Part shown: positions 4,175 to 62,744 of the stretch, one piece after another
Position numbering within the stretch: the first letter of the stretch is position 1
How the letters are laid out: every line of letters begins with the position of its first letter
Source: Deltaproteobacteria bacterium
Lineage (GTDB): Bacteria; CALINM01
Reading direction: 5' to 3'
Length of the DNA: 64,000 nt
Assembly: GCA_037442505.1 (NCBI GenBank)
Contig: JBBIPZ010000001.1
Location: 121,144 to 185,143 of the forward strand
Position numbers and translations under genes: made by a program
Notes under the pieces: model-generated
Seen by the model: the letters and a program-made list of their open reading frames with translations, nothing else
What the model was told of the DNA's origin: nothing
Databases searched by the model: none

Positions 4175-5472
4175 AGATTATAAAATATGGGACAGAGGAG
4201 GCTTCAAGTTTTATAAGATGCCTGTTAAACAGATTGGCTTTCGATACACCGCAGGAGACAACTGTAAAATCAATTATATCAGATGTCAGGGAAAAGGGTG
4301 ACGCTGCTATTCGGCATTACTTGGATAAATTTGACAAGATTAACTTGGCGCCCAAAAACTTCGTCTTAACAGATAAAGAATGGAAAGAGGGTGCAAACAG
4401 ATGCAGCAATGAAGTTAAAAAGATAATCGACATAACAGCTGAAAGGCTGGAAGAGTTTTATCAGCGCACAACTTACAACTCATGGTTTTATTACGATAAA
4501 TACAAAAATCTGCTCGGGAACAGGTTTTTACCCTTAAGCAGAGTACTTGTTTATGCCCCGGGTGGAAAGGCAACTTATCCATCTTCTGTTTTGATGGGTG
4601 CAGTACCGGCAAAAATTGCAGGTGTTGAAGAGGTTATTTTAACAACGCCTGAGAGACAGGATGGCATTTCACCTGCTGTTTTATATGCAGCTTTAAGGGC
4701 AGGTGTGAAAAAGGTTTATAGATTGGGTGGTGCACAGGCCATAGCTGGTTTTTCTTTTGGAACAGAGACACTGCCAAAGGTTGATAAGATCGTTGGTCCG
4801 GGCAATATTTTTGTCGCTACAGCAAAAAAACTACTTTATGGCGTGGTAGATATTGATATGGTTGCTGGTCCAAGTGAAGTACTTGTGATTTTTGATGGTT
4901 CTGCATCACTTGATTATGTTGCGTTTGATATGTTGTCGCAATTAGAACACGATGAACAGGCGGTAGCTCTCGCAGTAACAAACGATAACGCTTTGGCAAC
5001 AAAGCTACAACAAATACTTGAAAAAAATGCTAAAAAAGCTAAAAGGTCAAAAATAATAGAAAAATCACTTGAAAATGCTGCGATTATTGTTGTTGACAAT
5101 ATTCTGACTGCTGTAGAAGTGGCAAACTCAGTAGCACCAGAACATCTGGAAATTATGACAGAACGCCCCATGGAACTTTTACCTTATATAAAAAATGCTG
5201 GGGCTGTTTTCCTTGGGAGTCAAACACCAGAGGCGGTTGGTGATTATATAGCAGGTCCAAATCATGTTTTGCCTACCGGTGGAACGGCAAGATTCTTTTC
5301 GCCATTGGGCGTTGAAAGCTTTTTAAGAAGGATGAGCATAATATCATTTAGCGAGAAAGGTTTGCAAGCCTTAGGCGGATATGTTGCCAGCTTTGCAGAT
5401 GAAGAAGGGCTTTTTGCTCACGGCGATTCTGTCAGAATGAGATTGAGAAAAGGAGGAAAGTTTGAGGATTAG
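4171..5472 (+). CDS. hisD: Histidinol dehydrogenase
   Basis: 433 aa with HisD-typical motifs (GGAQAIAG, VDKIVGPGNIFVATAK, AGPSEVLVI). It overlaps the hisG stop. Confidence 0.92.
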   Translation: MKIIKYGTEEASSFIRCLLNRLAFDTPQETTVKSIISDVREKGDAAIRHYLDKFDKINLAPKNFVLTDKEWKEGANRCSNEVKKIIDITAERLEEFYQRTTYNSWFYYDKYKNLLGNRFLPLSRVLVYAPGGKATYPSSVLMGAVPAKIAGVEEVILTTPERQDGISPAVLYAALRAGVKKVYRLGGAQAIAGFSFGTETLPKVDKIVGPGNIFVATAKKLLYGVVDIDMVAGPSEVLVIFDGSASLDYVAFDMLSQLEHDEQAVALAVTNDNALATKLQQILEKNAKKAKRSKIIEKSLENAAIIVVDNILTAVEVANSVAPEHLEIMTERPMELLPYIKNAGAVFLGSQTPEAVGDYIAGPNHVLPTGGTARFFSPLGVESFLRRMSIISFSEKGLQALGGYVASFADEEGLFAHGDSVRMRLRKGGKFED

Positions 5473-6517
5473 AGAAGAAGTTTTATCACTAAAGCCATAC
5501 TTTATTGATGAAAAACAGGTAAAATTTAAACTTGATGCAAATGAGAGTCCTTTTGACCTTTCAGAAGAAGACAAGAAGGCGTTGCTGGAAGAACTTGCAA
5601 CAATACATACAAACCGCTATCCCGATCCTTCAATCAAAATTATAAAAAACTTGATAGCTGAAAGAGAATGTGTTTCTAATAACGAGATAGTTTTTGGCAA
5701 CGGTTCAGACGAACTGATATATATGCTTTTAATGTGTCTAAAAGACAGGGCGAAAGTTATGTTTCCTCAGCCGGGATTTGCTATGTATAGTATTGGTGCG
5801 AAAATATTTGGAAAGCAATTAATTCCATACAATCTTGTGCCGCCTTATTATATGGTTAATGAAGAAGAGTTTTTAAATCTATTAAGCACAGAAAATCCCG
5901 ATCTTGTGTTTGTTGCCAATCCAAATAATCCAACAGGCAATATATTCCCTCCAGATTTATTAGTCGAGACGATGAAGGCTCACGAAGACACAATTTTCGT
6001 CTCTGATGAGGCGTATTATGATTACGCTCAGTCTTCCATGATTTCTAATCTTTGCAATCATAAAAATTTATTAGTTATGAGGAGTTTTTCAAAGATAGGA
6101 TTTGCGAGTATAAGGCTTGGCTATCTTTTAGGAAAAGAACCGCTTATAGAGGCTGTGTCAAAGGTAAGACTTCCTTACAACATTAATAGCTATACTCAAA
6201 AAGTGGCGGAGTTTTTCCTTAAAAGAAATGACTTAGTAAAAAAACAAATTTCTGATATAATAGATGAACGAGAGAGAATTTTTAATGTTTTGACGGGGTT
6301 CAATATCTTTACACTTCCTTCTAAGGCAAACTTTCTGACCTTTAAAGTTGAAAAAAGTGGATTTTACAATTTTTTGCTTGATAATGGGGTGTTAATAAAG
6401 GATTTGTTTCATTCTTTTGGTATGAAAAACTTTTACAGAATGACTATCGGTAGAAAGGAAGAAAATAGCTTTTTTATTAAGCTTCTTACAAATTTTATTG
6501 AAGGGGCTGAGTTATGA
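5462..6517 (+). CDS. hisC: Histidinol-phosphate aminotransferase
   Basis: Class II aminotransferase features (YPDP, NPNNPTG, SFSKIG with PLP-lysine context). Operon position fits. Confidence 0.88.
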   Translation: MRIREEVLSLKPYFIDEKQVKFKLDANESPFDLSEEDKKALLEELATIHTNRYPDPSIKIIKNLIAERECVSNNEIVFGNGSDELIYMLLMCLKDRAKVMFPQPGFAMYSIGAKIFGKQLIPYNLVPPYYMVNEEEFLNLLSTENPDLVFVANPNNPTGNIFPPDLLVETMKAHEDTIFVSDEAYYDYAQSSMISNLCNHKNLLVMRSFSKIGFASIRLGYLLGKEPLIEAVSKVRLPYNINSYTQKVAEFFLKRNDLVKKQISDIIDERERIFNVLTGFNIFTLPSKANFLTFKVEKSGFYNFLLDNGVLIKDLFHSFGMKNFYRMTIGRKEENSFFIKLLTNFIEGAEL

Positions 6518-13759: not shown

Positions 13760-15052
13760 ATGTTAGAATTAAATGCCTTACTTTCTATCTTAATACTGCT
13801 TTTAATCATCGTTATCTTAGTTAAATCTAAAAACCTTAATCTTCAACCTATCGAACAGAAACTCCTGTTATTGGAGAAATTCTTAGAGAGATTTGATAAA
13901 TTAGTGCGGGAAGAGCTGCTAAAAGCCAGAGAAGAAGCCAACAACAATGCAAGGGCTTTAAGAGAGGAAATAAGCAATAATATAAAGTTGATGGGCGACA
14001 CTATTGTGAAAAATATGGGAGAGTTAGCAAACTTACAAAAATCACAACTTGATATCTTTGCCAGTCAGCTTTCCAATTTATCTGATATCACTGAGAAAAG
14101 ACTTGATAAGATGAGAGATACAATAGAGAACAGACTACAGATTTTACAGGAAGAGAATAGTAAAAAGCTCGACCAAATGAGAGGTGTTGTTGATGAGAAG
14201 CTACACGCAACGCTTGAAAAACGTCTGGGAGAATCATTTAAATTGGTTAGCGAAAGGCTTGAACTTGTACATAAAGGTTTAGGTGAGATGCAACACTTAG
14301 TTACAAGTGTCGGAGATTTGAAGAAGGTTTTAACTAATATAAAAACAAGGGGTACATGGGGAGAAATACAGCTTGGCAATTTGTTAGAGCAGATTTTATC
14401 TCCGGAGCAGTATCTAAAAAACGTTGTAATTAAGAAAGGAAGCACTGAACACGTGGAGTTTGCGATCAGGCTACCCGGCAAGGCTGATGATGAAAGAGAG
14501 GTGTTGTTGCCAATAGATGCTAAATTCCCTCAGGAGGCGTATCAAAGACTCTTAGATGCATATGAACATGCAAATCAAGAAAAGATTGATGATATGATAA
14601 AGGAGTTAGAAAAGACAATAAAACAAGAGGCAGCAAAGATAAAGGATAAGTACATAGATCCACCTAATACTACAGATTTTGCTATCATGTTTCTTCCTAC
14701 AGAAGGTCTTTTTGCTGAAGTTTTAAGAATAGCCGGGCTTTGTGAAAAACTCCAGACAGAGTATCGAATTGTTGTCACGGGACCAACAACTTTAGCGGCA
14801 TTGCTTAATAGTCTTCAGATGGGTTTTAGAACGCTTGCTATTGAAAAACGTTCAAGCGAAGTGTGGCAGCTTTTAGGTGCAGTTAAAACTGAGTTTAGCA
14901 AATTTGGTACAATATTGGAAAAAACAAATGAAAAATTAATACAGGCAACTAAAACGATAGACGATGCTGCAAAAAGATCAAGGATTATCGAAAAAAAACT
15001 AAATCAGGTCCAGTCTCTTCCACAAGAAACAGCAGAAAAGCTTTTAGAATAA
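13760..15052 (+). CDS. rmuC: DNA recombination protein RmuC
   Basis: N-terminal TM, long coiled coil, and a C-terminal RmuC nuclease-like domain (LPIDAKFP, DFAIMFLPTEGLF). Confidence 0.85.
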   Translation: MLELNALLSILILLLIIVILVKSKNLNLQPIEQKLLLLEKFLERFDKLVREELLKAREEANNNARALREEISNNIKLMGDTIVKNMGELANLQKSQLDIFASQLSNLSDITEKRLDKMRDTIENRLQILQEENSKKLDQMRGVVDEKLHATLEKRLGESFKLVSERLELVHKGLGEMQHLVTSVGDLKKVLTNIKTRGTWGEIQLGNLLEQILSPEQYLKNVVIKKGSTEHVEFAIRLPGKADDEREVLLPIDAKFPQEAYQRLLDAYEHANQEKIDDMIKELEKTIKQEAAKIKDKYIDPPNTTDFAIMFLPTEGLFAEVLRIAGLCEKLQTEYRIVVTGPTTLAALLNSLQMGFRTLAIEKRSSEVWQLLGAVKTEFSKFGTILEKTNEKLIQATKTIDDAAKRSRIIEKKLNQVQSLPQETAEKLLE

Positions 15053-15121
15053 TAAAGAAACAAAACTGTATCCTATTTATTGACAAGAGCTATGTAATTG
15101 TGATAGAAAAGCAAAAGAAAT

Positions 15122-15535
15122 ATGCAGATAATAATAAACGTATCAGATTTTTTCTTTGCCCTGCCAGTAAATATTATCGAAAAGGTTGTTTTACCAGAGA
15201 TGATTTTACACAATGAAGAAGGCTTTTTTCTCAATCAGATTAAGATAAATTTGTTAAATGCGGAAGAATTTTTCAAGATACGCATTAATAAAAACAACCC
15301 CAAAAAAACGTTAATTTTATTTACTTTAAAAAACGAAGTTCCCGTAGCAATTTTAGCTGATGATGTAGTAGGGTTTGTCAGGGATTGTGATTTGACATGC
15401 TTTCAAAGGGGAGAATTTCTTAAAGTATTTGGGTTCGAATATGTTTCAAAGTTTTGTTCGTACAATAATGTGTTTATCTTTTTTGTAGATGAAGATATGG
15501 TTACAAAACGTGTTTCGGAGTTGTTGTGGGAGTGA
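15122..15535 (+). CDS. Hypothetical protein, degenerate CheW-like domain
   Basis: 137 aa. The FFFALPVNIIEKVVLPEMI ... VPVAILADDVVGFVR pattern resembles the CheW fold. This is a weak call from pattern only. Confidence 0.45.
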   Translation: MQIIINVSDFFFALPVNIIEKVVLPEMILHNEEGFFLNQIKINLLNAEEFFKIRINKNNPKKTLILFTLKNEVPVAILADDVVGFVRDCDLTCFQRGEFLKVFGFEYVSKFCSYNNVFIFFVDEDMVTKRVSELLWE

Positions 15536-15939
15536 ATAAATTTTTGAAAGTTAAGATAGACTCGACAACATATTTGTGTCCTGAAGAAAATGTTCACAGG
15601 GTTGTCAATTTTGATATGGATAAAATATATGAGTCACCTTATGGTCCGAGCTGGCTGGCAAACCTTGTCATATATGAAAAAGAGGTAATACCTTTGCTGA
15701 ACATAGGTGAAAGTGAAAAAAATTTTAACTCAAAAACTAAATTAGCTGTTATAATTAAGAAAATTTTGTTTTTTGTTGCAGTTGAAGTAGATGAAGTTTT
15801 AAACTTTGTAGAGATAGGAGATGAGATTATTGAGACGTCGATTAATGTGGCAAAAAAGTTTGCAAAAAGGGCGTTTGATTATGAGGGCGATGAATGTTAT
15901 ATTTTAGATATAGATGCCCTTTTTTCAGGTAAGGAGTAA
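15526..15939 (+). CDS. Hypothetical protein, degenerate CheW-like domain
   Basis: 137 aa. FLKVKIDSTTYLCPEENVHRVV ... IPLLNIGE ... VAVEVDEV resembles the CheW pattern. Overlaps the upstream ORF by 10 nt. Confidence 0.45.
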   Translation: MGVNKFLKVKIDSTTYLCPEENVHRVVNFDMDKIYESPYGPSWLANLVIYEKEVIPLLNIGESEKNFNSKTKLAVIIKKILFFVAVEVDEVLNFVEIGDEIIETSINVAKKFAKRAFDYEGDECYILDIDALFSGKE

Positions 15940-17043
15940 ATGATGAAAAATCTGCTCGTTGTTGATGATAGTTTTACTGTTAGAAAAGTTTTAGAAATGT
16001 TATTAGTTCCGCTTGGATACAAGCTGACGTTTGCCGAAAATGGAAAACAAGCTATAGATTTTGTTAAATCAAATGCATTTGAACTTGTGATTTTAGATAA
16101 AGGCTTACCAGATATTGATGGTGTTTCTCTTTCAAAAGAGTTGAAGAAAATTAAGCCCTCCATGAGCTTGATTCTTATGAAAAATGCAAAACAAGAGATA
16201 GAAGAAACCACCATGAAAGAATGCAGGATAGATGATGTTCTCACAAAACCATTCGACTCACAAACATTGATATCTAAAATAGACGCAGTTTCGTCAAAAG
16301 TTGAGGAAGTTATCGAGAAACCGATTTTAACAGAGGAAAAGCAGTCGATTGAAGATAGTTTCAAGTTTGATTTAAGTTTTGGAGAAGAGTTCGCGTTTGA
16401 GTCTCCCAAGCGTACCGAAGAAAAGAAAGAGATTGTTGCTGAGGAGATAGAGGAACTGTCTGATTTAGAGTTGATAGAAGAGATTGAAGAAGCGCCGAAA
16501 AAGGAAGAAAAGTTTGAAGAAGAAATTTCCCTAGAAGACCTATTAGAGGAAGGTGAAATTAAGATTGAGGAGGAAAAACCTTTAATTGTACCTGTAGAAG
16601 AAGAGGAAACAAAGGTAAACATAGACGAGTTGTTCTCTGATTTGAACGACATATTAACTGAAAAAGAAGAACAACCAAAGGTGTCAGAACGAGAGCCTGT
16701 TTTTATGGCTAAGGATGTAAAACCTGTTGTAGAGGAAGTAGCTAAAGACCTTAAAGAACTCGAAACAATTGCGGAGAAAAGTGAAGCTGAGGAACTAAAA
16801 ATAGAAGACATCGAAGAACTGGATATATGGGATTTTACTCCAGAAGAAGAAAGACAACTTGTTACAGAAACAAAACCTGCAGAAACCATTGCTCCCACTA
16901 TAAACGAACCGTTTTATGTTGATAGGAAGTCGATAGAAAGGTTAGTTAGAGAAATAACGTACGAGGTAGTAGAAAAGGTTGCATGGGAGGTCGTTCCTGA
17001 AATAGTTGATACAATTCTCAAAGACAAATTTGGCAAGAAATAA
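15940..17043 (+). CDS. Response-regulator receiver protein with ~250-aa poly-acidic (E/K-rich) low-complexity tail (ChePep-like architecture)
   Basis: REC motifs: VVDDS, ILDKGLPDIDG (phospho-acceptor Asp) and LTKPF (conserved Lys). After that comes a long E-rich disordered region. The C-terminal ~45 aa appear ordered. Confidence 0.75.
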   Translation: MMKNLLVVDDSFTVRKVLEMLLVPLGYKLTFAENGKQAIDFVKSNAFELVILDKGLPDIDGVSLSKELKKIKPSMSLILMKNAKQEIEETTMKECRIDDVLTKPFDSQTLISKIDAVSSKVEEVIEKPILTEEKQSIEDSFKFDLSFGEEFAFESPKRTEEKKEIVAEEIEELSDLELIEEIEEAPKKEEKFEEEISLEDLLEEGEIKIEEEKPLIVPVEEEETKVNIDELFSDLNDILTEKEEQPKVSEREPVFMAKDVKPVVEEVAKDLKELETIAEKSEAEELKIEDIEELDIWDFTPEEERQLVTETKPAETIAPTINEPFYVDRKSIERLVREITYEVVEKVAWEVVPEIVDTILKDKFGKK

Positions 17044-17149: not shown

Positions 17150-19927
17150 ATGGAAGAAGAAATTTTGCCTAAAAGTTACCAGCCTGAGACGGTAGAAGAA
17201 AAGTGGTATCAGTTTTGGATAGAAAAGGGGTATTTTAAAGCTCAAGCAAAATCACACAAACCACCATTCTCTATGGTTATTCCCCCACCAAATGTTACTG
17301 GTTCACTTCATATGGGGCATGCTTTAAACAACACTATACAGGATATTATCGCTCGTTATAAAAGGATGGATGGCTATAATGTGTTGTGGCTACCCGGGAC
17401 AGACCATGCAGGAATCGCAACACAGAATGTCGTTGAAAAGATGATTGCGAAGGAAGGCATTTCGAGACATCATTTAGGGAGAAAAAAGTTTATTGAACGT
17501 GTATGGAAATGGAAGGAAGAATCAGGCAGCACAATCATTAACCAGCTTAAAAGGTTAGGGGCATCCTGTGATTGGAGCAGGGAACGTTTTACTATGGACG
17601 AAGGATTGTCTAAAGCAGTCAAGCAGGTTTTTTTAAGACTGTTTAAGGAAGGATTAATTCAACGTGACAACCGTCTTATAAACTGGTGTCCAAGGTGTGG
17701 TACTGCACTTTCTGATTTAGAGGTTGAATACGAAGAAAAAAATGGCAACCTTTACTATATAAAATATCCTTTTGTTGAATACCCGTCCAGATTTATCGTA
17801 GTTGCAACGACCCGTCCAGAAACAATGTTAGGTGATACTGCTGTAGCAGTGAATCCTGATGACAAAAGGTACAAGCACCTTGTGGGCAAGCATGTTCAAC
17901 TTCCACTTGCAAACAGGCAGATTCCTATCATTGCTGATTCAATGGTAGATGTCGCATTTGGAACGGGTGCTGTTAAGATTACGCCAGCTCATGACTTTGC
18001 CGATGAGGCCACAGGCAGAAGACATAACCTTGAATTCTGTTCCGTTATCGATAGAGAAGGGAAAATGAGCGGTGATATACCTGCTGAATACATAGGACTA
18101 AATAGATTTGAGGCGAGAACAAAAATAGTAGATGACCTAAGACAGCAGGAACTGCTTCTTAAAGTTGAGGCAATGAAACATAATGTTGGGCATTGTTATC
18201 GGTGTAAGGATGTAACAGAGCCGCTTTTAACATTGCAATGGTTTGTAAGGATCAAATCGCTTGCAGAAAAGGCTATAGCTGCGGTAAGGGAGAAGAAAAT
18301 AAAAATTATCCCTGAACAGTGGGAAAACACCTACTTTAACTGGATGGAAAATATTCAGGATTGGTGTATTTCAAGGCAGATATGGTGGGGGCATCAGATA
18401 CCTGTTTATTATTGTCCCAGATGCGATGGAGATAAAATTTTAATTACGCTCAGAGAAAATCAGGCAGATACTAAAAGATTGCAGGGTAATTATAACGACT
18501 TTATCAAAGAGGGGTTATCTTTTGAGAAAATCATTGAGGATATTGATTACTACTTGATTTTAGATGATGCTGTTCCTATCGTTGAGGGAGAATCTTGCAA
18601 AAAGTGTGGTTGTAAAGAACTCATTCAGGATCCAGATGTGCTCGATACGTGGTTTAGTTCTGCATTGTGGCCATTTTCTACATTAGGCTGGCCTGAACAT
18701 ACAGATGAGCTAAAGACGTTTTACCCTACTTCTGTGCTTGTAACGGGTTTTGATATACTGTTTTTCTGGGTAGCAAGAATGATCATGATGGGATTGAAAT
18801 TTATGGAGGATGTCCCATTTAAAGATGTCTATATTCATGCTCTTGTCAGAGATTCAAAAGGACAGAAGATGAGTAAATCGAAAGGCAATGTGATAGATCC
18901 CCTGTCAGTTATTGATAAATTTGGCACAGATTCATTCAGGTTTACTCTTGCTGCACTTGCTGCTCAAGGCAGAGATGTCAAACTTTCTGAGGCAAGAATT
19001 GAAGGTTATAAACACTTTGTTAATAAGATATGGAATGCCTCACGCTTTGTAAAGATGAACATAGAAAATTATAAAGTTTCGCAAGACTATGAAATTGACA
19101 TAAAAAATCTTCATCCATTTGATAACTGGATCCTTACACGGTTAAACGAAACGATTGCAGATGTAAGAAGTTACTATGATAATTACAATTTTAATGATGC
19201 GGCAAACGCTATATACAGATTTTTGTGGAACGATTTTTGTGACTGGTACATAGAACATTCAAAACTAAGGGCAAATGAGAGTGTAGTTAAGCATCTACTA
19301 TGGTACTGCTTGACAACTTCACTTAAACTTCTGCATCCCATAATGCCTTTCGTTACAGAAGAGATTTATCAAAGATTGCCTCACTTTGATGAAAGCATAA
19401 TGATTTCAAACTTTCCTGTGGCAAACACAGCGTTCATAGGTAAGGATGTTTCTAATATAGAACTGCTGATAAAGGTTATTCGTGCAATAAGAAATGTGAG
19501 AAGTGAGATGAATGTTGCACCTTCCCAGAGACCTTTTGTAACTATTGTTGCAAAAAACGAGGGTATGGGTAAGTTTTTAAGAGAAGTAAAAGATTTTATT
19601 GAGCAGTTAAGCAGGACACAGGCCGAGTTTGTTGACGAATTGAAAGAAAGACCAGCAAGCTCTGCTTTGACAGTAGTTGAAGGCATAGACATCTGGGTAA
19701 ATCTGGAAGGATTAATCAATGTCGAAGATGAGAAAAATCGTATAATGAAGGAAATTAATAAAACAGAAAAAGATGTTGAGTTTCTTAACAAGAAGCTTTC
19801 CAACGAAGATTATCTTAAACATGCGCCGGAAGATGTTGTCGAAGAGGATAGACAAAAGCTATCTGTTTATAAAGAAAAACTTGCAAAACTTGTAGAAAAT
19901 TTAGAGTTTTTGAAGGGGTTAAAGTGA
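17150..19927 (+). CDS. valS: Valine--tRNA ligase
   Basis: 925 aa. HMGHALN (HIGH-type) and KMSKSKGN (KMSKS) motifs. C-terminal coiled coil. Confidence 0.95.
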   Translation: MEEEILPKSYQPETVEEKWYQFWIEKGYFKAQAKSHKPPFSMVIPPPNVTGSLHMGHALNNTIQDIIARYKRMDGYNVLWLPGTDHAGIATQNVVEKMIAKEGISRHHLGRKKFIERVWKWKEESGSTIINQLKRLGASCDWSRERFTMDEGLSKAVKQVFLRLFKEGLIQRDNRLINWCPRCGTALSDLEVEYEEKNGNLYYIKYPFVEYPSRFIVVATTRPETMLGDTAVAVNPDDKRYKHLVGKHVQLPLANRQIPIIADSMVDVAFGTGAVKITPAHDFADEATGRRHNLEFCSVIDREGKMSGDIPAEYIGLNRFEARTKIVDDLRQQELLLKVEAMKHNVGHCYRCKDVTEPLLTLQWFVRIKSLAEKAIAAVREKKIKIIPEQWENTYFNWMENIQDWCISRQIWWGHQIPVYYCPRCDGDKILITLRENQADTKRLQGNYNDFIKEGLSFEKIIEDIDYYLILDDAVPIVEGESCKKCGCKELIQDPDVLDTWFSSALWPFSTLGWPEHTDELKTFYPTSVLVTGFDILFFWVARMIMMGLKFMEDVPFKDVYIHALVRDSKGQKMSKSKGNVIDPLSVIDKFGTDSFRFTLAALAAQGRDVKLSEARIEGYKHFVNKIWNASRFVKMNIENYKVSQDYEIDIKNLHPFDNWILTRLNETIADVRSYYDNYNFNDAANAIYRFLWNDFCDWYIEHSKLRANESVVKHLLWYCLTTSLKLLHPIMPFVTEEIYQRLPHFDESIMISNFPVANTAFIGKDVSNIELLIKVIRAIRNVRSEMNVAPSQRPFVTIVAKNEGMGKFLREVKDFIEQLSRTQAEFVDELKERPASSALTVVEGIDIWVNLEGLINVEDEKNRIMKEINKTEKDVEFLNKKLSNEDYLKHAPEDVVEEDRQKLSVYKEKLAKLVENLEFLKGLK

Positions 19928-20754
19928 TAAACATCTTAAGGTTAAGAGAAACTGTAAAGAATGCACTCCTTGAAGACATTGGTTTTGGCGATATAACTTC
20001 CCAGTTAATTGATGATAGTAAAAGGGGAAGGGGCTATTTTCTTGCCAAAGAGAAGTTTGTGCTTTGTGGCACTGATGTAGTTAAACTTTGCTTTGAAGAG
20101 ATTGACGGTGATCTAAAGGTTGACTTTACAGCCAAAGATGGCGATGTAATACCAAAAGGTGGAAAGTTTGGTACAGTTAAAGGCAAGCTAAGGAGCATAT
20201 TAACAGGAGAAAGGGTTGCGCTTAACTTTCTTCAAAGGCTTTCTGGTATATCAACAATCACAAGACAGTTTGTGGATATTGTAAGTAAATTTGGAGTAAA
20301 GATTCTTGATACAAGAAAAACTACACCTTTATTACGTGATTTAGAAAAGTATGCGGTAAAGGTTGGTGGTGGCTACAATCACAGGTTTAATTTATCGGAC
20401 GGCGTTTTGATAAAAGACAACCATATTGTTGCTGCAAAAGGCATTACAAATGCTGTTAAGCTTGCTAAAACAAAAACTACTGCGCTTATTAAGATAGCCG
20501 TAGAGGTGAAAAGTATGGATGAACTTAAAGAGGCGTTAAAAGCGGGCGTTGACCATATTATGCTTGATAATATGTCAGAGAAAGAGATTGCCAAAGCAAT
20601 AGAGATTGTTAAAAAGGCTGTCCCGGTTGAGGTTTCTGGCGGGATAAACTTAAATAACATAGAGAAATTTGCAAAACTTAAGCCCGACTTTATTTCTTCA
20701 GGGTACATAACTCACTCCGCAAAGGCTGTTGACATCAGTTTAGAGTTAGAATAG
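19924..20754 (+). CDS. nadC: Nicotinate-nucleotide diphosphorylase (carboxylating)
   Basis: LDTRKTTP-LR-LEKYAV-VGGG-NHRF-L-DGVLIKDNHI is the classic QPRTase motif. Confidence 0.9.
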   Translation: MINILRLRETVKNALLEDIGFGDITSQLIDDSKRGRGYFLAKEKFVLCGTDVVKLCFEEIDGDLKVDFTAKDGDVIPKGGKFGTVKGKLRSILTGERVALNFLQRLSGISTITRQFVDIVSKFGVKILDTRKTTPLLRDLEKYAVKVGGGYNHRFNLSDGVLIKDNHIVAAKGITNAVKLAKTKTTALIKIAVEVKSMDELKEALKAGVDHIMLDNMSEKEIAKAIEIVKKAVPVEVSGGINLNNIEKFAKLKPDFISSGYITHSAKAVDISLELE

Positions 20755-21714
20755 ATGACCTGGAAAAAGATATTAAACCTTCTCGTTTCTCATAACACAT
20801 ATGTTTCAGGGGAACAGATAGGCAGAAGCCTTAATATGAGTCGTACTGCTATCTGGAAACATATAAATTTCTTAAAGCAGTATGGGTATATCATACAAAG
20901 TTCATCAAACGCTGGTTATAAACTACAGTTTCCCATAGACACACCTATTGTTTTAGAGCCAGAAGAACTGACAACAGGTATAGTAGGCAGGCAAATTATT
21001 TCTACCATCACCACAACATCAACAAACAATAATGCGATTTCAATATCTGAGAATGTTACGGAAGGAACAGTTGTAATTACTGAAAGCCAAACACAAGGCA
21101 GAGGTAGGAGAGGAAGAAGCTGGGTTTCTCCATTTGGAATGGGGCTTTATTTCTCAATCATTTTAAAGCCAGTTTTGCCAGTTGCTAAGTTGCCCAGAAT
21201 GACAATCCTTATTGGGGTCGCTATTGCTAACGCATTGAAAAAGTTTAACATTTTCCCTCAGCTCAAGTGGCCTAATGACATTATTTTAAATGAGAAAAAG
21301 ATTGGGGGAGTTTTGTCAGAACTTTTTGTAGAAGGTGATATAGCAAAATATGTAGTTGTTGGTGTAGGACTCAATGTTCACACCAGGTCTGACGACTTTC
21401 CAGAAGAGATCAGAAAAATAGCGGGAAGTATATACACTGAGACAGGTAAAAGTTTTTCAAGGCTCAAAATTTTAACTGCTTGCCTTTCTGAGATTGATAA
21501 TGCGTATAAATTTTTTGTAAAAAATAGCGGAGATTTAGGAGAGTTTGCGCATTCCTGGAATGAAATAGCCTGGAAAAAGGGTGAAGAGGTTTTTATAACT
21601 ACAGGAAAAGAAAAAGAGCTTTGTAAAATAATTGAATTACGGGAAGATGGTGTGTTACTGGTAAAACAGGGCAAAAAACTGAAAGAAGTGTTTGTTGGTG
21701 AAATCCTCTTTTAG
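20755..21714 (+). CDS. birA: Bifunctional biotin--[acetyl-CoA-carboxylase] ligase / transcriptional repressor
   Basis: N-terminal HTH (SGEQIGRSLNMSRTAIWKHI), a BPL catalytic core (GRGRRGRSW, KWPNDI) and a C-terminal domain. It carries an unusual Thr/Ser-rich insertion before GRGRRG. Confidence 0.85.
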   Translation: MTWKKILNLLVSHNTYVSGEQIGRSLNMSRTAIWKHINFLKQYGYIIQSSSNAGYKLQFPIDTPIVLEPEELTTGIVGRQIISTITTTSTNNNAISISENVTEGTVVITESQTQGRGRRGRSWVSPFGMGLYFSIILKPVLPVAKLPRMTILIGVAIANALKKFNIFPQLKWPNDIILNEKKIGGVLSELFVEGDIAKYVVVGVGLNVHTRSDDFPEEIRKIAGSIYTETGKSFSRLKILTACLSEIDNAYKFFVKNSGDLGEFAHSWNEIAWKKGEEVFITTGKEKELCKIIELREDGVLLVKQGKKLKEVFVGEILF

Positions 21715-40393: not shown

Positions 40394-41401
40394 ATGGCTC
40401 TTGATAGTCAAAAAAACAAGGCTTTAGAGATAGCTATGTCTCAAATTGAAAAGCAGTTTGGCAAAGGTTCGATAATGAAGCTCGGCAGCGAGTCTCTGGA
40501 AAAGGACATAGATGTAATTTCGACTGGCTCGATATCTTTAGATATAGCTTTAGGTGTAGGTGGTGTGCCGAGAGGCAGGATAATAGAGATTTTTGGACCA
40601 GAATCCTCTGGTAAAACTACGATCTGTTTACACGTCATTGCAGAAGCACAAAAAAAGGGTGGCGCAGCGGCATTTATAGATGCAGAACATGCACTTGATG
40701 TAGTTTATGCAAGTAAGTTGGGCGTTAAGACTGATGACCTGTTAATATCACAACCTGATACTGGCGAGCAAGCTCTTGAGATTGCTGAAGTTCTTATAAG
40801 AAGTGGTGCTTTAGATGTGCTTGTTATAGATTCTGTAGCAGCATTGGTTCCAAAGGCTGAAATTGAAGGGGAAATGGGAGATGCGCATATGGGTTTACAG
40901 GCAAGGTTAATGTCGCAGGCACTAAGAAAACTAACTGCTGCAATATCAAAATCCAAGACTACCGTTATTTTCACAAACCAGATACGTTCAAAGATTGGTG
41001 TATTTTTTGGAAATCCTGAAACGACAACAGGTGGATATGCGCTTAAATTTTATGCATCGGTTAGAATGGATATTCGTCCTATTAGTCCTATTAAAGAAGG
41101 CAATGATAAGATTGGAACGAGAACGCGTGTCAAGGTCGTTAAAAACAAAGTTGCTCCCCCTTTTAAAGAGGCAGAATTTGACATCCTTTATGGTGTAGGG
41201 ATATCAAAGGAAGGAGATGTGCTGGATCTGGCAGTTGAGGAAGGGTTAATTGAAAAAAGTGGTGCATGGTACTCATATAAAGGGGATCGAATCGGTCAGG
41301 GACGTGAAAATGCAAAACAGTATTTAAAAGAGCATACGGAACTTTTAGCCCAGTTAGAAAAGGCGATTCTTGAAAAGCATAACCTATACAAAGGAGAGTA
41401 A
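40394..41401 (+). CDS. recA: Recombinase A
   Basis: [27 protein letters not shown] (Walker A) and LVIDSVAAL. Confidence 0.97.
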
Positions 41402-42562
41402 ATGGGCAATTCAGTCCTTGATGAGATTCTAAAAATAGCTATGAAGATCGAGGCTTCTGACGTCCACCTCAAGCCTGGCAAGCCGCCAGTCTATCGAACA
41501 CACAATAAACTTGTCTCTTTAAAAGATGCGAAGGTGTTGGGCTTTGATGAGCTTAACGAGATGCTTTATGGGATGATGACACCAAAACAAAGGTCGGAGT
41601 TTGATCAAAAATTTGATTTTGATATGGCATATAGCGTGCCGGGTGTCGGCAGGTTCAGGGTAAATCTTTTCAAACAAAGAGGCAGCATTGGCGCTGTAAT
41701 GCGTGCAATACCAATGGTCGTTAAAGGGTTTAAAGAGCTTGGTTTGCCGCCAATTATGGAAAAGATTGCGAGCGAAAAAAGGGGATTAATCCTTGTTACA
41801 GGTACTACAGGATCAGGAAAATCTACAACACTTGCATCGATTATAGACTATATAAACAACACCAGTACTTGTAACATAATAACGATTGAGGACCCTATAG
41901 AGTTTCTTTTCAGGGACAACAAAAGCATTATCGTCCAGAGAGAGGTTGGTTTTGATACATTAAGTTTTAACAATGCGCTAAGGGCGGCATTGAGACAGGA
42001 TCCAGACATCATACTTGTAGGAGAGATGAGGGATATCGAAACAATCGAAATTGCGTTAACTGCAGCTGAAACAGGACATCTTGTTTTAAGTACTTTGCAT
42101 ACGATGGATGCTACAGAGACGATTAACAGAATTGTTGGGATTTTCCCTCCGCATCAGCAACAGCAGATTAGATATCAGTTGGCAGCAACATTGAAGGCAG
42201 TCATCTCCCAGAGGTTAGTGCCTAAGGCAGATGGTAGAGGGAGAGTGCCTGCGGTAGAAATACTTATTGCTACTGCCAGAATTAAAGAACTTATCGAGGA
42301 TCCAACTAAAACTAAAGCCATTAGGGACGCTATTGCAGAAGGGCACACAGTTTATGGAATGCAAACATTTGACCAGAGCTTATATGTCCTGTTGAAACAA
42401 AACCTTATTACTTACGAGGAGGCATTAAAAAATGCCACAAACCCAGCTGACTTTGCTCTTAAAGTAAGTGGGGTAGACACCTCATCTGATAAAACATCAT
42501 CTGTACATGAGGGGGGAGAAGTATCAAAGGACAAAGAAGAACTGAAGATAGAGCGCTTTTAG
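41402..42562 (+). CDS. pilT: Type IV pilus twitching-motility ATPase PilT
   Basis: ASDVHL N-terminus. GTTGSGKSTT Walker A. GEMRD plus the TLHT His-box. AIRDAIAEG... C-terminus. Confidence 0.9.
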   Translation: MGNSVLDEILKIAMKIEASDVHLKPGKPPVYRTHNKLVSLKDAKVLGFDELNEMLYGMMTPKQRSEFDQKFDFDMAYSVPGVGRFRVNLFKQRGSIGAVMRAIPMVVKGFKELGLPPIMEKIASEKRGLILVTGTTGSGKSTTLASIIDYINNTSTCNIITIEDPIEFLFRDNKSIIVQREVGFDTLSFNNALRAALRQDPDIILVGEMRDIETIEIALTAAETGHLVLSTLHTMDATETINRIVGIFPPHQQQQIRYQLAATLKAVISQRLVPKADGRGRVPAVEILIATARIKELIEDPTKTKAIRDAIAEGHTVYGMQTFDQSLYVLLKQNLITYEEALKNATNPADFALKVSGVDTSSDKTSSVHEGGEVSKDKEELKIERF

Positions 42563-42621
42563 TTAAAAGGTATGCTTTAAGACTTCTGGAGCGTTTTATC
42601 TATTCAGAAAGTGTATTAAAA

Positions 42622-43002
42622 GTGAAAATTTTGAATAAATTTCCTGATAGCGAAGCTGAAATAGAGGTTATCGTTAACGATTTAAAAAAACTCGGATATA
42701 TCGATGATGAAAAAAATGCGCACTACTATGTAGATTTGCTAATTTCAAGGGGGTATGGCAGAGAATACATTAAACGCTATTTAAAGAAAAAAGGCTTTCC
42801 AGTACCGGATGAGATTGTTGTTGAAAGTAGTGATGCTATAGAGAAATGGTTTTTAAAAAAGACGAAGGGTAAAACAAGTTTAGAACGGAAAGATTGGCAG
42901 AGGGTTTTTTTGTATCTTAAGAGTAAAGGTTTTACTTCAGAGGAAATTTTTGATTTTTTTAGAAAACGGAGGGTGTATGAAGGGGAGAGAGATTCGCGCT
43001 AA
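42622..43002 (+). CDS. recX: RecA regulator RecX
   Basis: 126 aa, made of helical repeats with YGR/YIKRYL-KKG-style motifs. It sits just upstream of alaS, as in the canonical recA-recX-alaS arrangement. Confidence 0.7.
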   Translation: MKILNKFPDSEAEIEVIVNDLKKLGYIDDEKNAHYYVDLLISRGYGREYIKRYLKKKGFPVPDEIVVESSDAIEKWFLKKTKGKTSLERKDWQRVFLYLKSKGFTSEEIFDFFRKRRVYEGERDSR

Positions 43003-45595
43003 ATTCCTCAATTATTTTGCGGAAAGAGGGCACCAAATTGTAAAAAGTTCAGGATTGGTTCCTCAAAATGACCCGACGCTACTTTTTACAAATGCCGGTA
43101 TGAACCAGTTTAAAGATATTTTTCTTGGAATAGAGAAAAGAGATTATAAAAGGGCTTGTAGCTCACAAAAATGTGTAAGGGCTGGCGGTAAACATAACGA
43201 CCTTGAGAATGTAGGTTATACTGCACGCCATCACACATTTTTTGAGATGTTAGGAAACTTTTCATTTGGCGATTATTTTAAAAAAGACGCTATTTTCTAT
43301 GGTTGGGATTTTTTAACAAGAGAGCTTAATCTTCCCAAGGAAAGACTCTGGGTAACAATATACAAAGATGATGAAGAAGCTTTTAAATTATGGCAGGAAG
43401 TTGCAGGCATATCAGCGGACAGAATCGTTAGATTGGGTGAAAAAGACAATTTTTGGTCGATGGGAGATGAAGGACCATGCGGACCCTGCTCTGAAATAAT
43501 AATAGATCAGGGTGAAGGTGTTGGATGTGGCAAACAGGATTGTGCAGTTGGATGTGATTGTGATAGATATTTAGAGTTGTGGAATCTCGTTTTTATGCAG
43601 TATAACAGAAAAAGTGACGGTACGTTGGAGCCATTGCCTAATCCGAGTATTGATACAGGGATGGGATTAGAACGCATTACATCTGTTATTCAGAAGGTAA
43701 GTTCTAACTTTGAGACTGACTTATTGTTTCCGTATATAGAGAAGATGGCTTCACTTGCGGGTGTAAAATATGGTGAAAATCACGAAACAGACGGTCATTT
43801 AAAAGTTATAGCGGATCACATAAGGGCTATGACGTTTTTGATATCGGACGGGGTTTTTCCATCAAATGAGGGACGTGGCTATGTTTTAAGAAGAATCATG
43901 CGAAGGGCGATAAGACATGCCAGGATGTTAGGTTTTTCAAAGCCGGTTTTATTTGAGCTTGCACCTCTTGTAGCCGATGTGATGGAAGATGCATATCCAG
44001 AGCTTAAAGATAACCTCGAACTCGTAAAAAAGGTAGTTCAAAACGAAGAAGAACGTTTTCTGGAGACATTAGACGGAGGGTTAAAGATACTTTTTGGCAA
44101 GCTTGATGAAGTGAGGAAAAATAATGCTAAAGTGTTTCCAGGAGACACCGCATTTATGCTGTATGATACATATGGTTTTCCTGTTGATTTGACACAGGAT
44201 ATATTGAGGGAACACAATATTTCTCTGGATTTGGCTGGCTTTGAATCACAAATGGAGCAGCAAAGAGAACGTGCACGAAAAAGCTGGAAAGGGGAGGGAG
44301 CAGGGATAGAAGAATTATATAAAAGACTATCACAGGAGATTGATGTTGAGTTTCTGGGATATCAAACAACAGTTTCGACCGAACATTTATTAAAAATAGT
44401 TTCTAACGGAATGTTGAAAGACGAACTTTTAGAAGGTGAAAAAGGAGAATTCATTTTCGAAAAAACACCATTTTACGGTGAGTCTGGCGGACAAGTAGGT
44501 GATATTGGCAAGATTATTGGTGATGATTTTTTGATTGAAGTTTCTGATACAAAAAAGATAAACAATTTGATTATTCATGTTGGTTATGTTAAAAAAGGAA
44601 AAGTAAAAACTGGCGTTTCTGCATGCCTTATTGTTGAAAATAGTCTCCGTGAAAATACCGCTTCTCATCATACGGCAACGCATCTTTTACAGGCTGCGCT
44701 CCAAAAGGTGTTGGGCAATCACGTTAAGCAGGCAGGCAGTCTTGTAACGCCGGAACGCTTGAGGTTTGACTTTACACATTTTGCAGCAATAACCGATGAT
44801 GAATTGAGTAAGATAGAGAGACTTATCAATGAATGGATAAGAGATAACAAAAAGGTTAGAATCTCTATACTGTCGTATGATGAGGCTGTGAAAAAGGGCG
44901 CGATGGCAATTTTTGGAGAGAAGTATGGAGATACCGTTAGAATGGTGGAAGTAGAAGAAGTTAGTAAAGAGCTTTGTGGCGGAACTCATCAGACAGAAAC
45001 AGGCAGACTTGGTCTTTTCAAAATCATTTCTGAAGAAAGTGTTGCTGCTGGAGTAAGGAGGATAGAGGCGGTTGCTGGTGAATCTGCCTACAACTGGGTA
45101 ACACAAATGTGGGATAAGCTACAAACAGTATCTTCAGTATTAAAAACATCACCTAAAGACGTCGAATTTAAGATAGAAAAGCTTGTTAAAAGAGAGAAGG
45201 AACTGGAAAAACAGATAGAATCTTTACAACATAAGATCTCTTCTTATCAGGCAAAGGAACAGATGGTTGTTAAAGAAATTAAAAATGGTAACCGTGCAAT
45301 CGCTACAAAGGTCTCCGTTTCGGACGTCAACCAGTTAAGAACAACAATGGACACAATTAAAGATAAAGAAAAGGATGCTGTAATCTTTTTAGCTTCTGCG
45401 ATAGAAGGAAAGGCAAACTATCTGGTTTTTGTGCCTGATAATATAACTCATCTGGATGCAGGAAAACTTTTAAAAGAGATTGTAGCACAGGTAAATGGCA
45501 GAGGAGGCGGAAAGAAAAATATGGCACAGGGTGGTTCTAATTCCGCTTCGGATATTGAAACAGCTATCAAAAAGTTTTTTTCTCTGGTGGAGTGA
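42977..45595 (+). CDS. alaS: Alanine--tRNA ligase
   Basis: Starts MKGREIRAKFLNYFAERGH. Editing-domain HxxxH/CxxxH motifs (HHTATH, CGGTH) and a C-terminal DHHA1 domain. The start at 42977 follows GAGGGTG and overlaps the recX end. Confidence 0.93.
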   Translation: MKGREIRAKFLNYFAERGHQIVKSSGLVPQNDPTLLFTNAGMNQFKDIFLGIEKRDYKRACSSQKCVRAGGKHNDLENVGYTARHHTFFEMLGNFSFGDYFKKDAIFYGWDFLTRELNLPKERLWVTIYKDDEEAFKLWQEVAGISADRIVRLGEKDNFWSMGDEGPCGPCSEIIIDQGEGVGCGKQDCAVGCDCDRYLELWNLVFMQYNRKSDGTLEPLPNPSIDTGMGLERITSVIQKVSSNFETDLLFPYIEKMASLAGVKYGENHETDGHLKVIADHIRAMTFLISDGVFPSNEGRGYVLRRIMRRAIRHARMLGFSKPVLFELAPLVADVMEDAYPELKDNLELVKKVVQNEEERFLETLDGGLKILFGKLDEVRKNNAKVFPGDTAFMLYDTYGFPVDLTQDILREHNISLDLAGFESQMEQQRERARKSWKGEGAGIEELYKRLSQEIDVEFLGYQTTVSTEHLLKIVSNGMLKDELLEGEKGEFIFEKTPFYGESGGQVGDIGKIIGDDFLIEVSDTKKINNLIIHVGYVKKGKVKTGVSACLIVENSLRENTASHHTATHLLQAALQKVLGNHVKQAGSLVTPERLRFDFTHFAAITDDELSKIERLINEWIRDNKKVRISILSYDEAVKKGAMAIFGEKYGDTVRMVEVEEVSKELCGGTHQTETGRLGLFKIISEESVAAGVRRIEAVAGESAYNWVTQMWDKLQTVSSVLKTSPKDVEFKIEKLVKREKELEKQIESLQHKISSYQAKEQMVVKEIKNGNRAIATKVSVSDVNQLRTTMDTIKDKEKDAVIFLASAIEGKANYLVFVPDNITHLDAGKLLKEIVAQVNGRGGGKKNMAQGGSNSASDIETAIKKFFSLVE

Positions 45596-46605: not shown

Positions 46606-47034
46606 ATGTTTCAGGCAAAAAAACAACAAGTCATTGAAGAGGTGAAAATACAGGGCAACGTCGAAGTGCTAACATTTTTAGGTGTAGGTACAGAGTTTAA
46701 AGGAAAAGTTGTTTTTCAGGGCACATTAAGGGTAGATGGTACGGTAGAAGGCGAGATTGATGGCAGTGATACGCTCATTCTCGGAGAGACAGGCTCTATT
46801 ACTGGTGTTTGCAAGGTAGGAAAAGCAATTTTCTCTGGCAAGATTAGGGGTGAAGTGTATGCCAGTGAAAAGCTTATACTAAAGAAAAACTCTGACTTCA
46901 ATGGCAAAATAGTGACGCCGTCGCTGGTAGTTGAAGAGGGTGCAAACTTTAACGGTAGTTGTAAAATGGGTAGAGAGTTTCCCAAAGAAAGGGAGTATAT
47001 CGAAGAGCACGAAGCTTCTGTTGTGAAACTATAA
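46606..47034 (+). CDS. Bactofilin-family cytoskeletal protein
   Basis: Repetitive beta-helical pattern (GKVVFQGTLRVDGTVEGEIDGSDTLILGETGSITG...). ~140 aa. Confidence 0.8.
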   Translation: MFQAKKQQVIEEVKIQGNVEVLTFLGVGTEFKGKVVFQGTLRVDGTVEGEIDGSDTLILGETGSITGVCKVGKAIFSGKIRGEVYASEKLILKKNSDFNGKIVTPSLVVEEGANFNGSCKMGREFPKEREYIEEHEASVVKL

Positions 47035-47051
47035 ACCCTTTAGAATTACAG

Positions 47052-47723
47052 ATGAAAGAAACCAGCACAATCAAAGATATGTTTGACAACATAGCGCAGA
47101 GGTATGATTTTTTGAATCATACTTTATCCATCTTTCAGGATTATTACTGGCGATACCAGATGTTTAATGAAGTTGTTCCAGCAAGAGAAGTTTTAGTGTT
47201 AGATATAGCGACAGGCACTGGTGATAGCGCAAAAGTCTCGATAAAAAATGGTTTTAAGGTTGTGGGCATTGATTTAAGCTATAAAATGCTTTACAAAACG
47301 AAAAAAAAGATAAAAAGTGATAGCTTTATTCCTATATGTGGTTCAGGTTATGAATTGCCATTTAAAAATGAAAGCTTTTCTGTGATCACTTGTGCATTTG
47401 GTATAAGAAACATGCATGAAACCATTTCCGCTTTAAAAGAGATTAATCGTGTATTAAAAAACGGGGGAAAGGTTATTTTTCTTGAGTTTTCAATGCCGGA
47501 GACATTATTTAAATATCCATATCGCATTTATCTAAAGTATGTAATGCCATTTATCGCCTCCTTTTTTTCAAGAAAAGAGGCATACGATTACTTGTATGAT
47601 TCTATTGAAAAATTTCCCCGACCAGATGATTTCGCCCAACTGTTAAGAGAAGCCAGCTTTACAGCATGCAAAACCAAATCGCTGAGTTCTGGAACTGTAA
47701 ACATAATAACTGCGTTTAAGTAG
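47052..47723 (+). CDS. ubiE: Demethylmenaquinone/ubiquinone C-methyltransferase UbiE/MenG-like (class I SAM MTase)
   Basis: MFDNIAQRYDFLNH-LS (UbiE N-motif) and VLDIATGTGD (SAM motif I). Confidence 0.8.
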   Translation: MKETSTIKDMFDNIAQRYDFLNHTLSIFQDYYWRYQMFNEVVPAREVLVLDIATGTGDSAKVSIKNGFKVVGIDLSYKMLYKTKKKIKSDSFIPICGSGYELPFKNESFSVITCAFGIRNMHETISALKEINRVLKNGGKVIFLEFSMPETLFKYPYRIYLKYVMPFIASFFSRKEAYDYLYDSIEKFPRPDDFAQLLREASFTACKTKSLSSGTVNIITAFK

Positions 47724-47742
47724 TTTAAGCAGTAATTATTAT

Positions 47743-48306
47743 TTATCCTTTTGACAGTATGGTTTTTAATGCGTAAACAAGCCGTTTTTCTAAATCTTCA
47801 ATATTTGCGGAGGCACCTTTATTCAAGTAAAATGATGGTTCAGAATGAGAGATAAATTTTTTGAGCTCATCATCAGCCTGTTTTACTGAGAAAAACAGAA
47901 TGGGTACCTTTTTGATTTCTAATGCCTTTTCTATGGCACGCATCGCAATTGCAGTGCTTACTCCAGAAATAAAGGGCATTCGTATATCAAGTATAACAAG
48001 ACTTACATCTCTTTTTTCAATAATAGACTTTAGATAGTAGGTTATAGCTTCTTCGCCATTATTCAATGGTATGAATCTGTTACAAAGTCCGTTTTTTTCG
48101 ACGATATCTTTAACCAGCTCACGCATAAACGCAGAGTCATCTGCGTGAATTATTGTAACTTCATCTAATTTTGCTGTTTTAATGTGATTTTTTTTGCTTA
48201 AAGGCAGCCCACAGTACAAACAACATATTTCTTCTTTGCCGTCTTTTATGACTGTGTAGGTAAGTACATCTTCGTTACAGTGCTGGCAAAAAAGTTTTTT
48301 TTCCAT
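47743..48306 (-). CDS. Zinc-ribbon + receiver-domain response regulator (no output domain)
   Basis: N-terminal CQHCN...CCLYCG zinc ribbon, then a REC domain (IIHADDS...LDIRMP...K). Confidence 0.7.
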   Translation of the reverse strand: MEKKLFCQHCNEDVLTYTVIKDGKEEICCLYCGLPLSKKNHIKTAKLDEVTIIHADDSAFMRELVKDIVEKNGLCNRFIPLNNGEEAITYYLKSIIEKRDVSLVILDIRMPFISGVSTAIAMRAIEKALEIKKVPILFFSVKQADDELKKFISHSEPSFYLNKGASANIEDLEKRLVYALKTILSKG

Positions 48307-53302: not shown

Positions 53303-53318
53303 TGTATCCTGTCCTCCG

Positions 53319-54125: not shown

Positions 54126-54167
54126 TTTTAAACCTCACAATAATGATAAAGTCATATTAAAAAAAAT

Positions 54168-55202: not shown

Positions 55203-55208
55203 TCTTAC

Positions 55209-56057: not shown

Positions 56058-56060
56058 ATA

Positions 56061-59303: not shown

Positions 59304-59308
59304 AATAT

Positions 59309-59947: not shown

Positions 59948-59950
59948 AAT

Positions 59951-60754: not shown

Positions 60755-60774
60755 TCTTTTAAATCCTCAGATGT

Positions 60775-62742: not shown

Positions 62743-62744
62743 AG

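Follow-up and report, generated by a model that had tools for sequence, protein, structure and literature searches.

We focus here on a conserved three-gene cassette at positions 15122–17043 of a 64,000-nucleotide stretch of DNA from a Deltaproteobacteria bacterium (assembly GCA_037442505.1, contig JBBIPZ010000001.1, positions 121,144 to 185,143 of the forward strand), which we refer to in its full length as the window. The cassette consists of two cheW-like genes, A and B, followed by romR, with valS next in line. The preliminary description of this DNA had regarded the locus as an orphan chemosensory module; it is better read as the polarity gene romR together with conserved CheW-like partner genes. 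As the joint best explanation, we consider it highly probable that the 367-residue product of the third gene is an orthologue of RomR, and that the two 137-residue proteins encoded before it are the split form of a tandem-CheW protein and act with RomR. RomR itself, its variable linker and, in a figure legend of 2007, its neighbour with two CheW domains are already known. The new point is a modest one, namely that the CheW-like pair stands beside romR in a fixed A-then-B order in Myxococcaceae, in Desulfuromonadales-type lineages and in the uncultured clade of the window, through gene fusion or fission. With the RomR assignment, a puzzling "acidic receiver" moves into a well-studied family.

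The assignment of the 367-residue protein (15940–17043, + strand) to the RomR family draws on sequence, architecture and synteny. Residues 1–119 (15940–16296, +) correspond to a receiver (REC) domain, with a Pfam Response_reg match at residues 6–114 (1.5e-20) and with D9, D10, D53 and K103 conserved in the family alignment, which comprises 18 sequences. This is followed by an acidic linker, predicted to be disordered from its predicted local distance difference test (pLDDT) scores (residues 120–328; 16297–16923, +), and by a helix corresponding to RomR-C, recognized by its conserved core and predicted helical structure (residues 329–367, which with the stop codon occupy 16924–17043, +). In the AlphaFold model, the REC domain has a pLDDT of ~90, residues 125–225 are disordered and the C-terminal helix at 329–364 reaches ~82; pLDDT is <50 over most of 125–324, with short helices at 198–205, 228–243 and 264–292 that fall on conserved motifs. 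The layout originally described, a REC domain followed by an acidic, disordered tail whose C-terminal end is ordered, is thus borne out, the tail being 248 residues long (120–367) and its last ~40 residues forming one predicted helix. Tail composition is 27% Glu, 6% Asp and 11% Lys, with a net charge of −47 and an isoelectric point of 4.24, and that of the linker is 29% Glu, 6% Asp and 11% Lys, with a net charge of −48. The description of the tail as Glu/Lys-rich low complexity holds for these proportions, but the tail is not plain, since it carries several conserved motifs: GEEF, EEISLEDLLEE, IDELFSDLNDIL, KPVVEEVAKELKE and DIWDF are invariant or near-invariant across the family alignment, and the final 40 residues are strongly conserved, ending ...EITYEVVEKVAWEVVPEIVDTILKDKFGKK. 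A database search returned ~17 full-length relatives of 356–411 residues, with identities down to 38%, all of them from metagenomes or metagenome-assembled genomes (MAGs). Tail length and composition are similar among these relatives and the motifs are kept throughout the 18-member family, which argues against a lineage-specific expansion artefact, a possibility raised at the outset.

By definition, RomR consists of a REC domain, a linker that is unstructured and differs in composition between lineages, and an alpha-helical RomR-C in which a Glu is conserved and a Trp and a Pro are invariant (Keilberg 2012, PMC3441718). First of all, a motif scan of species-representative genomes, using EK[VI]AWE[VI]V together with an FSDLN motif, gave 219 confirmed relatives, and among the matches listed are Myxococcus, Corallococcus, Archangium, Geobacteraceae, Desulfuromonadales, Holophagales and one Acidobacteriota MAG. 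The match in Myxococcus xanthus is a protein of 419 residues with a REC domain, a Pro-rich linker, the stretch ...EKIAWEVVPQLAE... and the C terminus ...REVIEKIAWEVVPQLAETIIREEL, flanked by a 271-residue open reading frame (ORF) upstream and valS downstream. These features are those of MXAN4461, which is RomR, with REC at residues 1–116, a Pro-rich region at 117–368 and a Glu-rich region at 369–420, and with MXAN4460, a Val-tRNA synthetase, and MXAN4462, which has two CheW domains, on its flanks (Leonardy 2007, PMC2034494). Second, BLASTP aligns the window protein with M. xanthus RomR in two collinear segments, REC at 29% identity (E 8e-18) and RomR-C at 48% over 33 residues (E 2e-6). The two proteins have the REC stretches KNLLVxDDSxTxRKV and TKPF[DE]SQ in common, and the RomR-C core EKVAWEVVPEIVD is common to the RomR proteins of Myxococcus, Geobacteraceae, Desulfuromonadales, Holophagales and Acidobacteriota. 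Third, W349 and P353 are invariant in the family alignment, matching the published definition of RomR-C. RomR's C-terminal helix binds MglC, with W394 essential and E390, K391 and E402 at the interface (PMC12719032); E345, K346, W349 and D357 of the window protein, all invariant in the family, align to E390, K391, W394 and E402, respectively, and the mapped contact residues are thus kept or conservatively replaced. Finally, an acidic linker is usual for RomR outside Myxococcales: Glu makes up 19–20% of the linker in Geobacteraceae, 15–24% in Desulfuromonadales (with 9–13% Asp) and 36% in one MAG, and the linkers of Myxococcaceae and Holophagales are 30–34% Pro.

Taken side by side, the window protein and M. 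xanthus RomR are alike in having a REC domain, a disordered linker and an alpha-helical RomR-C with an EK[IV]AWEVVP core that includes the MglC-binding Trp, as well as the same flanks, a CheW-CheW gene (here split) upstream and valS downstream. The flanks are supporting evidence that lies outside the definition of RomR given in the literature. They differ in the linker, which is rich in Pro, Ala and Gly in Myxococcales but in Glu and Lys here (29% and 11%), in the five clade-specific conserved linker motifs of the window protein and in length, which is 420 residues in M. xanthus versus 367 here. In a survey of 1611 genomes, RomR was found in Myxococcales, Geobacter/Pelobacter, Acidobacteria, Deferribacterales and Aquificales, together with MglA and MglB in 26 of 31 genomes, and its co-occurrence with type IV pili was also reported (Keilberg 2012, PMC3441718). 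The presence in the window of a gene for a pilT-family type IVa pilus ATPase (41402–42562, +; TIGR01420 pilT_fam, 6.8e-145, 482.6 bits against a cut-off of 319.1) is consistent with this co-occurrence; no other pilus genes were seen within the window.

The preliminary description had likened the architecture to that of ChePep, and the cassette would then be a ChePep-like accessory module of flagellar chemotaxis, in which the REC-acidic protein modulates CheY phosphate turnover at the pole bearing the flagellum and the CheW-like proteins tether it to the main chemotaxis array. ChePep, the HP0322 family, regulates flagellar switching and likewise joins a REC-like region at the N terminus to a disordered body rich in Glu and Asp, and it is localized at the pole (Howitt 2011, PMC3143842); in addition, CheW-like genes adjoin the gene here, and there is a full che cluster at a distance of 36 kb. 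The likeness is, however, one of general layout only, confined to the REC-like N terminus and the acidic disordered body, with polar localization being that of ChePep. The C-terminal helix of the window protein corresponds instead to RomR-C and the locus is syntenic with M. xanthus romR, whereas ChePep is described as restricted to Epsilonproteobacteria, the only group in which homologues have been reported (Howitt 2011, PMC3143842), and neither a RomR-C helix nor synteny with a CheW pair and valS has been reported for it. Likewise, the groups named in the 1611-genome survey of RomR do not overlap the ChePep range (Keilberg 2012, PMC3441718), and no flagellar gene was seen within the window, while pilT is present. 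All identified relatives of the window protein are of the RomR type and come from deltaproteobacterial-type lineages, Acidobacteriota and uncultured groups, ChePep being judged here by its published description. Given this positive evidence for RomR, a ChePep identity is very unlikely.

Within the RomR protein, some local features deserve a separate mention. The motif EE[IL]S[LI][DE] occurs in RomR linkers that are otherwise unalignable, for example at residues 194–199 of the window protein (16519–16536) and at residues 345–350 of the protein at locus L036; it is found in the linkers of the window clade and of Myxococcaceae (33 of 38, where shuffling expects 0.0) and is not present in those of Desulfuromonadales or Geobacteraceae. 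It could be convergent, or it could be an unrecognized shared linear motif. The idea that it tracks the CheW pair was rejected, since Desulfuromonadales have the pair without the motif. In the receiver, the Thr/Ser switch position, which we take to be equivalent to T87 of CheY, is apparently replaced (residues 80–82; 16177–16185): following an invariant Met80, it is Lys in the window protein and variable within the clade, and pairwise alignments place Ala there in M. xanthus RomR. Phosphorylation of RomR has been reported to be dispensable, and a replaced switch residue, if correctly aligned, would fit this. On the opposite strand, a 333-codon ORF rich in Ser and Phe (15897–16898, −) runs across the linker; it arises from the GAA/GAG-rich codons of the coding strand and is not a gene.

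Turning to the genes that precede romR, ORF B (15526–15939, +; 137 residues, GTG start) is recognized as a CheW-like protein at the sequence level by Pfam CheW PF01584 (5.6e-8, 32.9 bits against a cut-off of 23.5), which aligns over profile positions 2–136 of 138. Six of its seven clade orthologues also match Pfam CheW, and the ORF B family profile matches solved CheW structures at 3e-18. ORF A (15122–15535, +; 137 residues) on its own matches no Pfam, NCBIfam or PDB sequence, and a profile built from the window clade only (A2) likewise found nothing among PDB sequences. Of its clade orthologues, 4/7 match Pfam CheW, as do 18/22 A-position homologues (best 7e-16), and the profile of the A-position family matches solved CheW structures at 1e-12. 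Compared with each other, the A-position and B-position family alignments match with 97.7% probability (E 2.4e-12). To guard against circularity, A2 was compared with a profile made from other phyla only (A8); in hhalign, A2 matches A8 over the full length (E 5e-6, 86%). A2 also matches the B family with E 2e-7 (93.5%). A first hhalign comparison of A2 with A3, with seven sequences each, was weak (E 0.003, 10.7%), and it is therefore the broader alignments and the fold prediction only that place the fold of ORF A. The AlphaFold model, from a 12-sequence alignment, has a pLDDT of 86.5 and a predicted template modelling score of 0.81, and a Foldseek search with it gives CheW or CheA-P5 for all of the top 18 PDB matches (E 1e-7 to 2e-4, template modelling scores 0.53–0.73), the next match being at E 0.24.

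The absence of any Pfam, NCBIfam or PDB-sequence match to ORF A and to its clade profile when used alone, together with the finding of only 11 relatives in the database, could also be explained if ORF A were a decayed duplicate or a spurious ORF with no functional CheW-fold protein. We find this hardly credible, as the length and position of ORF A are kept in orthologues down to ~20% identity, the model with a CheW/P5 fold is a confident one, and the profile-profile comparison that matches it over its full length to A-type domains from other phyla is independent. Family profiles and the AlphaFold model instead point to ORF A as a highly divergent protein of the CheW/CheA-P5 fold, a double beta-barrel of two subdomains that both members of the pair are taken to keep. 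The early suggestion that both small ORFs are CheW-like is thus upheld, for ORF B by a score over the Pfam threshold and for ORF A by profile-profile comparison and predicted fold.

The pair nevertheless stands apart from the canonical CheW proteins of the same genome. The canonical CheW genes of the window score 105–114 bits on Pfam CheW versus 33 bits for ORF B and no match for ORF A. When ORF A and ORF B are aligned with the canonical CheW and P5 domains of the window (alignment A10), the arginine of the h-L-R-G motif, presumably R62 of Escherichia coli CheW, is present in the three canonical domains, whereas ORF B has Glu and ORF A has Asn in its place; it is retained in the A-type domains of Desulfuromonadales and apparently of Myxococcus. 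We therefore propose, tentatively because the identity in A10 is low, that the conserved CheW arginine has been lost from the pair in this clade. No CheA kinase or chemoreceptor gene is encoded in the cassette or within ~10 kb of it at seven clade loci. Most likely, rather than serving as core couplers in an array of receptors and kinases, the two proteins are non-canonical subunits with a scaffold or adaptor role. FrzB of the M. xanthus Frz system sets a precedent, being a divergent CheW-fold protein that has lost canonical coupling to the kinase and works as an accessory of the array or scaffold (Guiseppi 2019, PMC6952110). It differs in being encoded in a complete chemosensory operon and in acting on the FrzCD receptor, whereas the pair described here is encoded with romR, away from receptor and kinase genes.

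The gene arrangement is conserved well beyond the window. At six further distinct places in the clade, A, B and romR are followed by valS and nadC and usually birA, as would be looked for in relatives on the preliminary description. What lies upstream of A varies among the clade loci, with rmuC, an ABC transporter, AddAB-type helicase-nuclease genes or a pair of histidine kinase and response regulator; rmuC occupies this place at only three of the seven distinct clade places (the window, L001 and L007) and is replaced in L002/L004, L005 and L006. The adjacency to rmuC, noted at the outset, is therefore incidental, and rmuC as a module member is ruled out by synteny across the clade loci. We searched the DNA upstream of romR at all 80 genome loci with hidden Markov models (HMMs) of the A and B families, and 78 of these had enough sequence. 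An A-type followed by a B-type domain, ending just before romR, was found at 60 of the 78 informative loci, always in this order; Desulfuromonadales-type lineages and the window clade have two separate genes, and Myxococcaceae have a single fused one of ~271 codons. The 271-residue gene product upstream of romR in M. xanthus is a tandem CheW protein (6.6e-14, two stretches). Located directly upstream of romR, it thus has the domain types of the window pair in unchanged order, the domain distal to romR scoring best with the A-type HMM and the proximal one with the B-type HMM, and from these matches ORF A is orthologous to the first and ORF B to the second CheW domain of MXAN4462, in split form. 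The differences are that MXAN_4462 is a single protein of 271 residues, whereas here and in Desulfuromonadales-type lineages the domains are encoded by separate overlapping genes of ~137 codons, and that ORF A of the window lacks the CheW arginine that A-type domains of other clades apparently retain in the low-identity alignment A10.

Downstream, valS follows romR at ~70 of the 80 loci; the two are syntenic across Myxococcaceae, Desulfuromonadales, Geobacteraceae, Holophagales and the window clade, with valS-nadC fixed in the window clade (17150–21714 in the window), and no functional reason for the romR-valS linkage is apparent. This touches on a further explanation, in which the RomR identification stands and the CheW-like genes are syntenic passengers just as valS may be, functioning in an array elsewhere or in an unrelated role. 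The equal conservation of valS-nadC-birA, which have no evident functional link, speaks for it, as do the several RomR lineages without the pair at the locus and the lack, in the literature searched, of any published experimental link between the pair and RomR. On the other hand, Myxococcaceae, Desulfuromonadales-type lineages and the window clade all keep the order of the pair directly upstream of romR across a gene fusion or fission, and the pair is retained despite complete turnover of the genes further upstream. Furthermore, start and stop codons in the cassette overlap or abut across romR and its neighbours, and the pair is far more divergent than the bona fide CheW genes of the genome, as expected for a specialized role. 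We thus regard passenger genes as possible, though rather unlikely, and favour a pair that acts with RomR.

Several points weigh against the combined reading of the 367-residue protein as RomR and of the pair as its partners. First of all, unrelated receivers in the PDB match its REC domain at least as closely as that of M. xanthus RomR does (29% identity), so that the RomR assignment rests on the short RomR-C, the architecture and synteny. A search of the PDB by sequence found no RomR structure, the best matches being generic receivers, and in a Pfam scan of the tail and C terminus no family covers RomR-C. Second, mglA, mglB, mglC and romX were not found within the 64-kb window. Third, no function of MXAN4462 was found in the literature searched beyond an "unpublished" remark, the gene being mentioned only in the figure legend of 2007 (Leonardy 2007). 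Fourth, the loss of the CheW arginine is read from an alignment of low identity. Fifth, the pair is missing at the romR locus in Geobacteraceae, Holophagales, Acidobacteriota and a few others, with unrelated housekeeping genes upstream, and RomR can therefore work without an adjacent copy. Finally, valS is equally syntenic with no obvious functional link, so that gene order alone is weak functional evidence. Among the loci that lack the pair, the ORFs upstream of romR in Holophagales were considered as A and B homologues and rejected, those of L013 being unrelated and the equivalent at L014 carrying a B12-binding domain. In the Acidobacteriota MAG (L076), the position of the pair immediately upstream of romR is taken by a stand-alone gene for a 148-residue receiver (5222–5668).

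In M. xanthus, RomR is the response regulator that acts as a polar scaffold for the MglA/MglB polarity module, which sets the direction of both type-IV-pilus and gliding motility. Polar targeting of M. xanthus RomR takes place through the linker and RomR-C (Keilberg 2012, PMC3441718), and MglA is recruited by the REC domain through RomX (PMC12719032). By analogy, the disordered linker and the C-terminal helix of the window RomR would target the protein to the cell poles, the RomR-C helix would bind a roadblock protein of the MglC/MglB type via its Glu-Lys-x-x-Trp face, and the REC domain would recruit the MglA GTPase through a RomX-like partner. ORF A and ORF B would most likely form a CheW/P5-like pseudo-dimer acting with RomR, the basis for this step being gene order and translational coupling only. 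The RomR assignment thus predicts an MglA/MglB-type polarity switch for surface motility in an uncultured lineage.

We know of no kinase for RomR, and how chemosensory signals are passed on to the polarity module is understood only in part. A conserved partner with a CheW fold is therefore a concrete candidate, and one that is testable in the genetically tractable M. xanthus. More specifically, the RomR-linked CheW pair might be a dedicated cross-phylum adaptor that docks RomR, through its receiver domain or its linker motifs, onto a chemosensory array or a CheA-P5-like surface, a proposal that we put forward as doubtful and, on balance, unlikely. Were it true, the adaptor would provide a direct physical route from Frz-type chemosensory signalling to the MglA/MglB switch, as well as a possible route to the kinase of RomR.

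Within the window, the cassette follows rmuC (13760–15052, +; Pfam RmuC 1.2e-73) after a gap of 69 nucleotides. ORF A and ORF B overlap by 10 nucleotides, and the ATG of romR comes directly after the TAA stop codon of ORF B, an arrangement that suggests co-translation; the order of two overlapping 137-residue ORFs and a REC protein after rmuC, and their coordinates, are as first described. A further 106 nucleotides separate romR from valS (17150–19927, +; 925 residues), identified from orthologous loci annotated as Val-tRNA synthetase. A possible promoter for the cassette, TTGACA and an extended −10-like TGaTAGAAA separated by 18 nucleotides (15080–15109, +), is weak and was picked out by eye only; the consensus scan did not flag it and gave eight sites in the region versus 7.6 expected from shuffles. 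A terminator scan found only two terminator-like sites, both on the opposite strand. The genes around the cassette are those for ferredoxin, aldehyde:ferredoxin oxidoreductase, a glycosyltransferase, rmuC, valS, nadC, birA and ribonucleotide reductase, and no kinase or receptor gene lies within ~10 kb of it in the window, in agreement with the earlier observation. The distance of ~36 kb to the main che operon, also noted earlier, measures 35.9 kb, with the operon on the minus strand.

This main chemosensory cluster (52928–63122, −) was assigned with Pfam and NCBIfam and encodes, in order, CheY, CheA, an AAA_22 ATPase, a CheW-like protein of 212 residues, CheW, a Zn-ribbon-REC protein, a HEAT-repeat protein, CheR, CheB, a GAF protein and CheY. 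Its make-up is unusual. The 212-residue CheW carries an N-terminal extension, and the HEAT-repeat protein has 632 residues; the AAA_22 ATPase resembles the PEP-CTERM-associated ATPase (234 bits, under the cut-off of 324.5). An adjoining ORF of 281 residues (63136–63981) has no Pfam or NCBIfam match, and none of the window ORFs scanned gave a Pfam match to a chemoreceptor signalling domain. The pilT/pilU-family ATPase gene sits between recA and recX-alaS (40394–45595), where a pilus retraction ATPase would not be expected. The interval from the pilT region to the che cluster holds genes for a bactofilin (46606–47034; 1.1e-26) and for a 187-residue receiver protein with an N-terminal extension (47743–48306, −), and it is possible that these (46606–48306) are cytoskeletal or polarity components.

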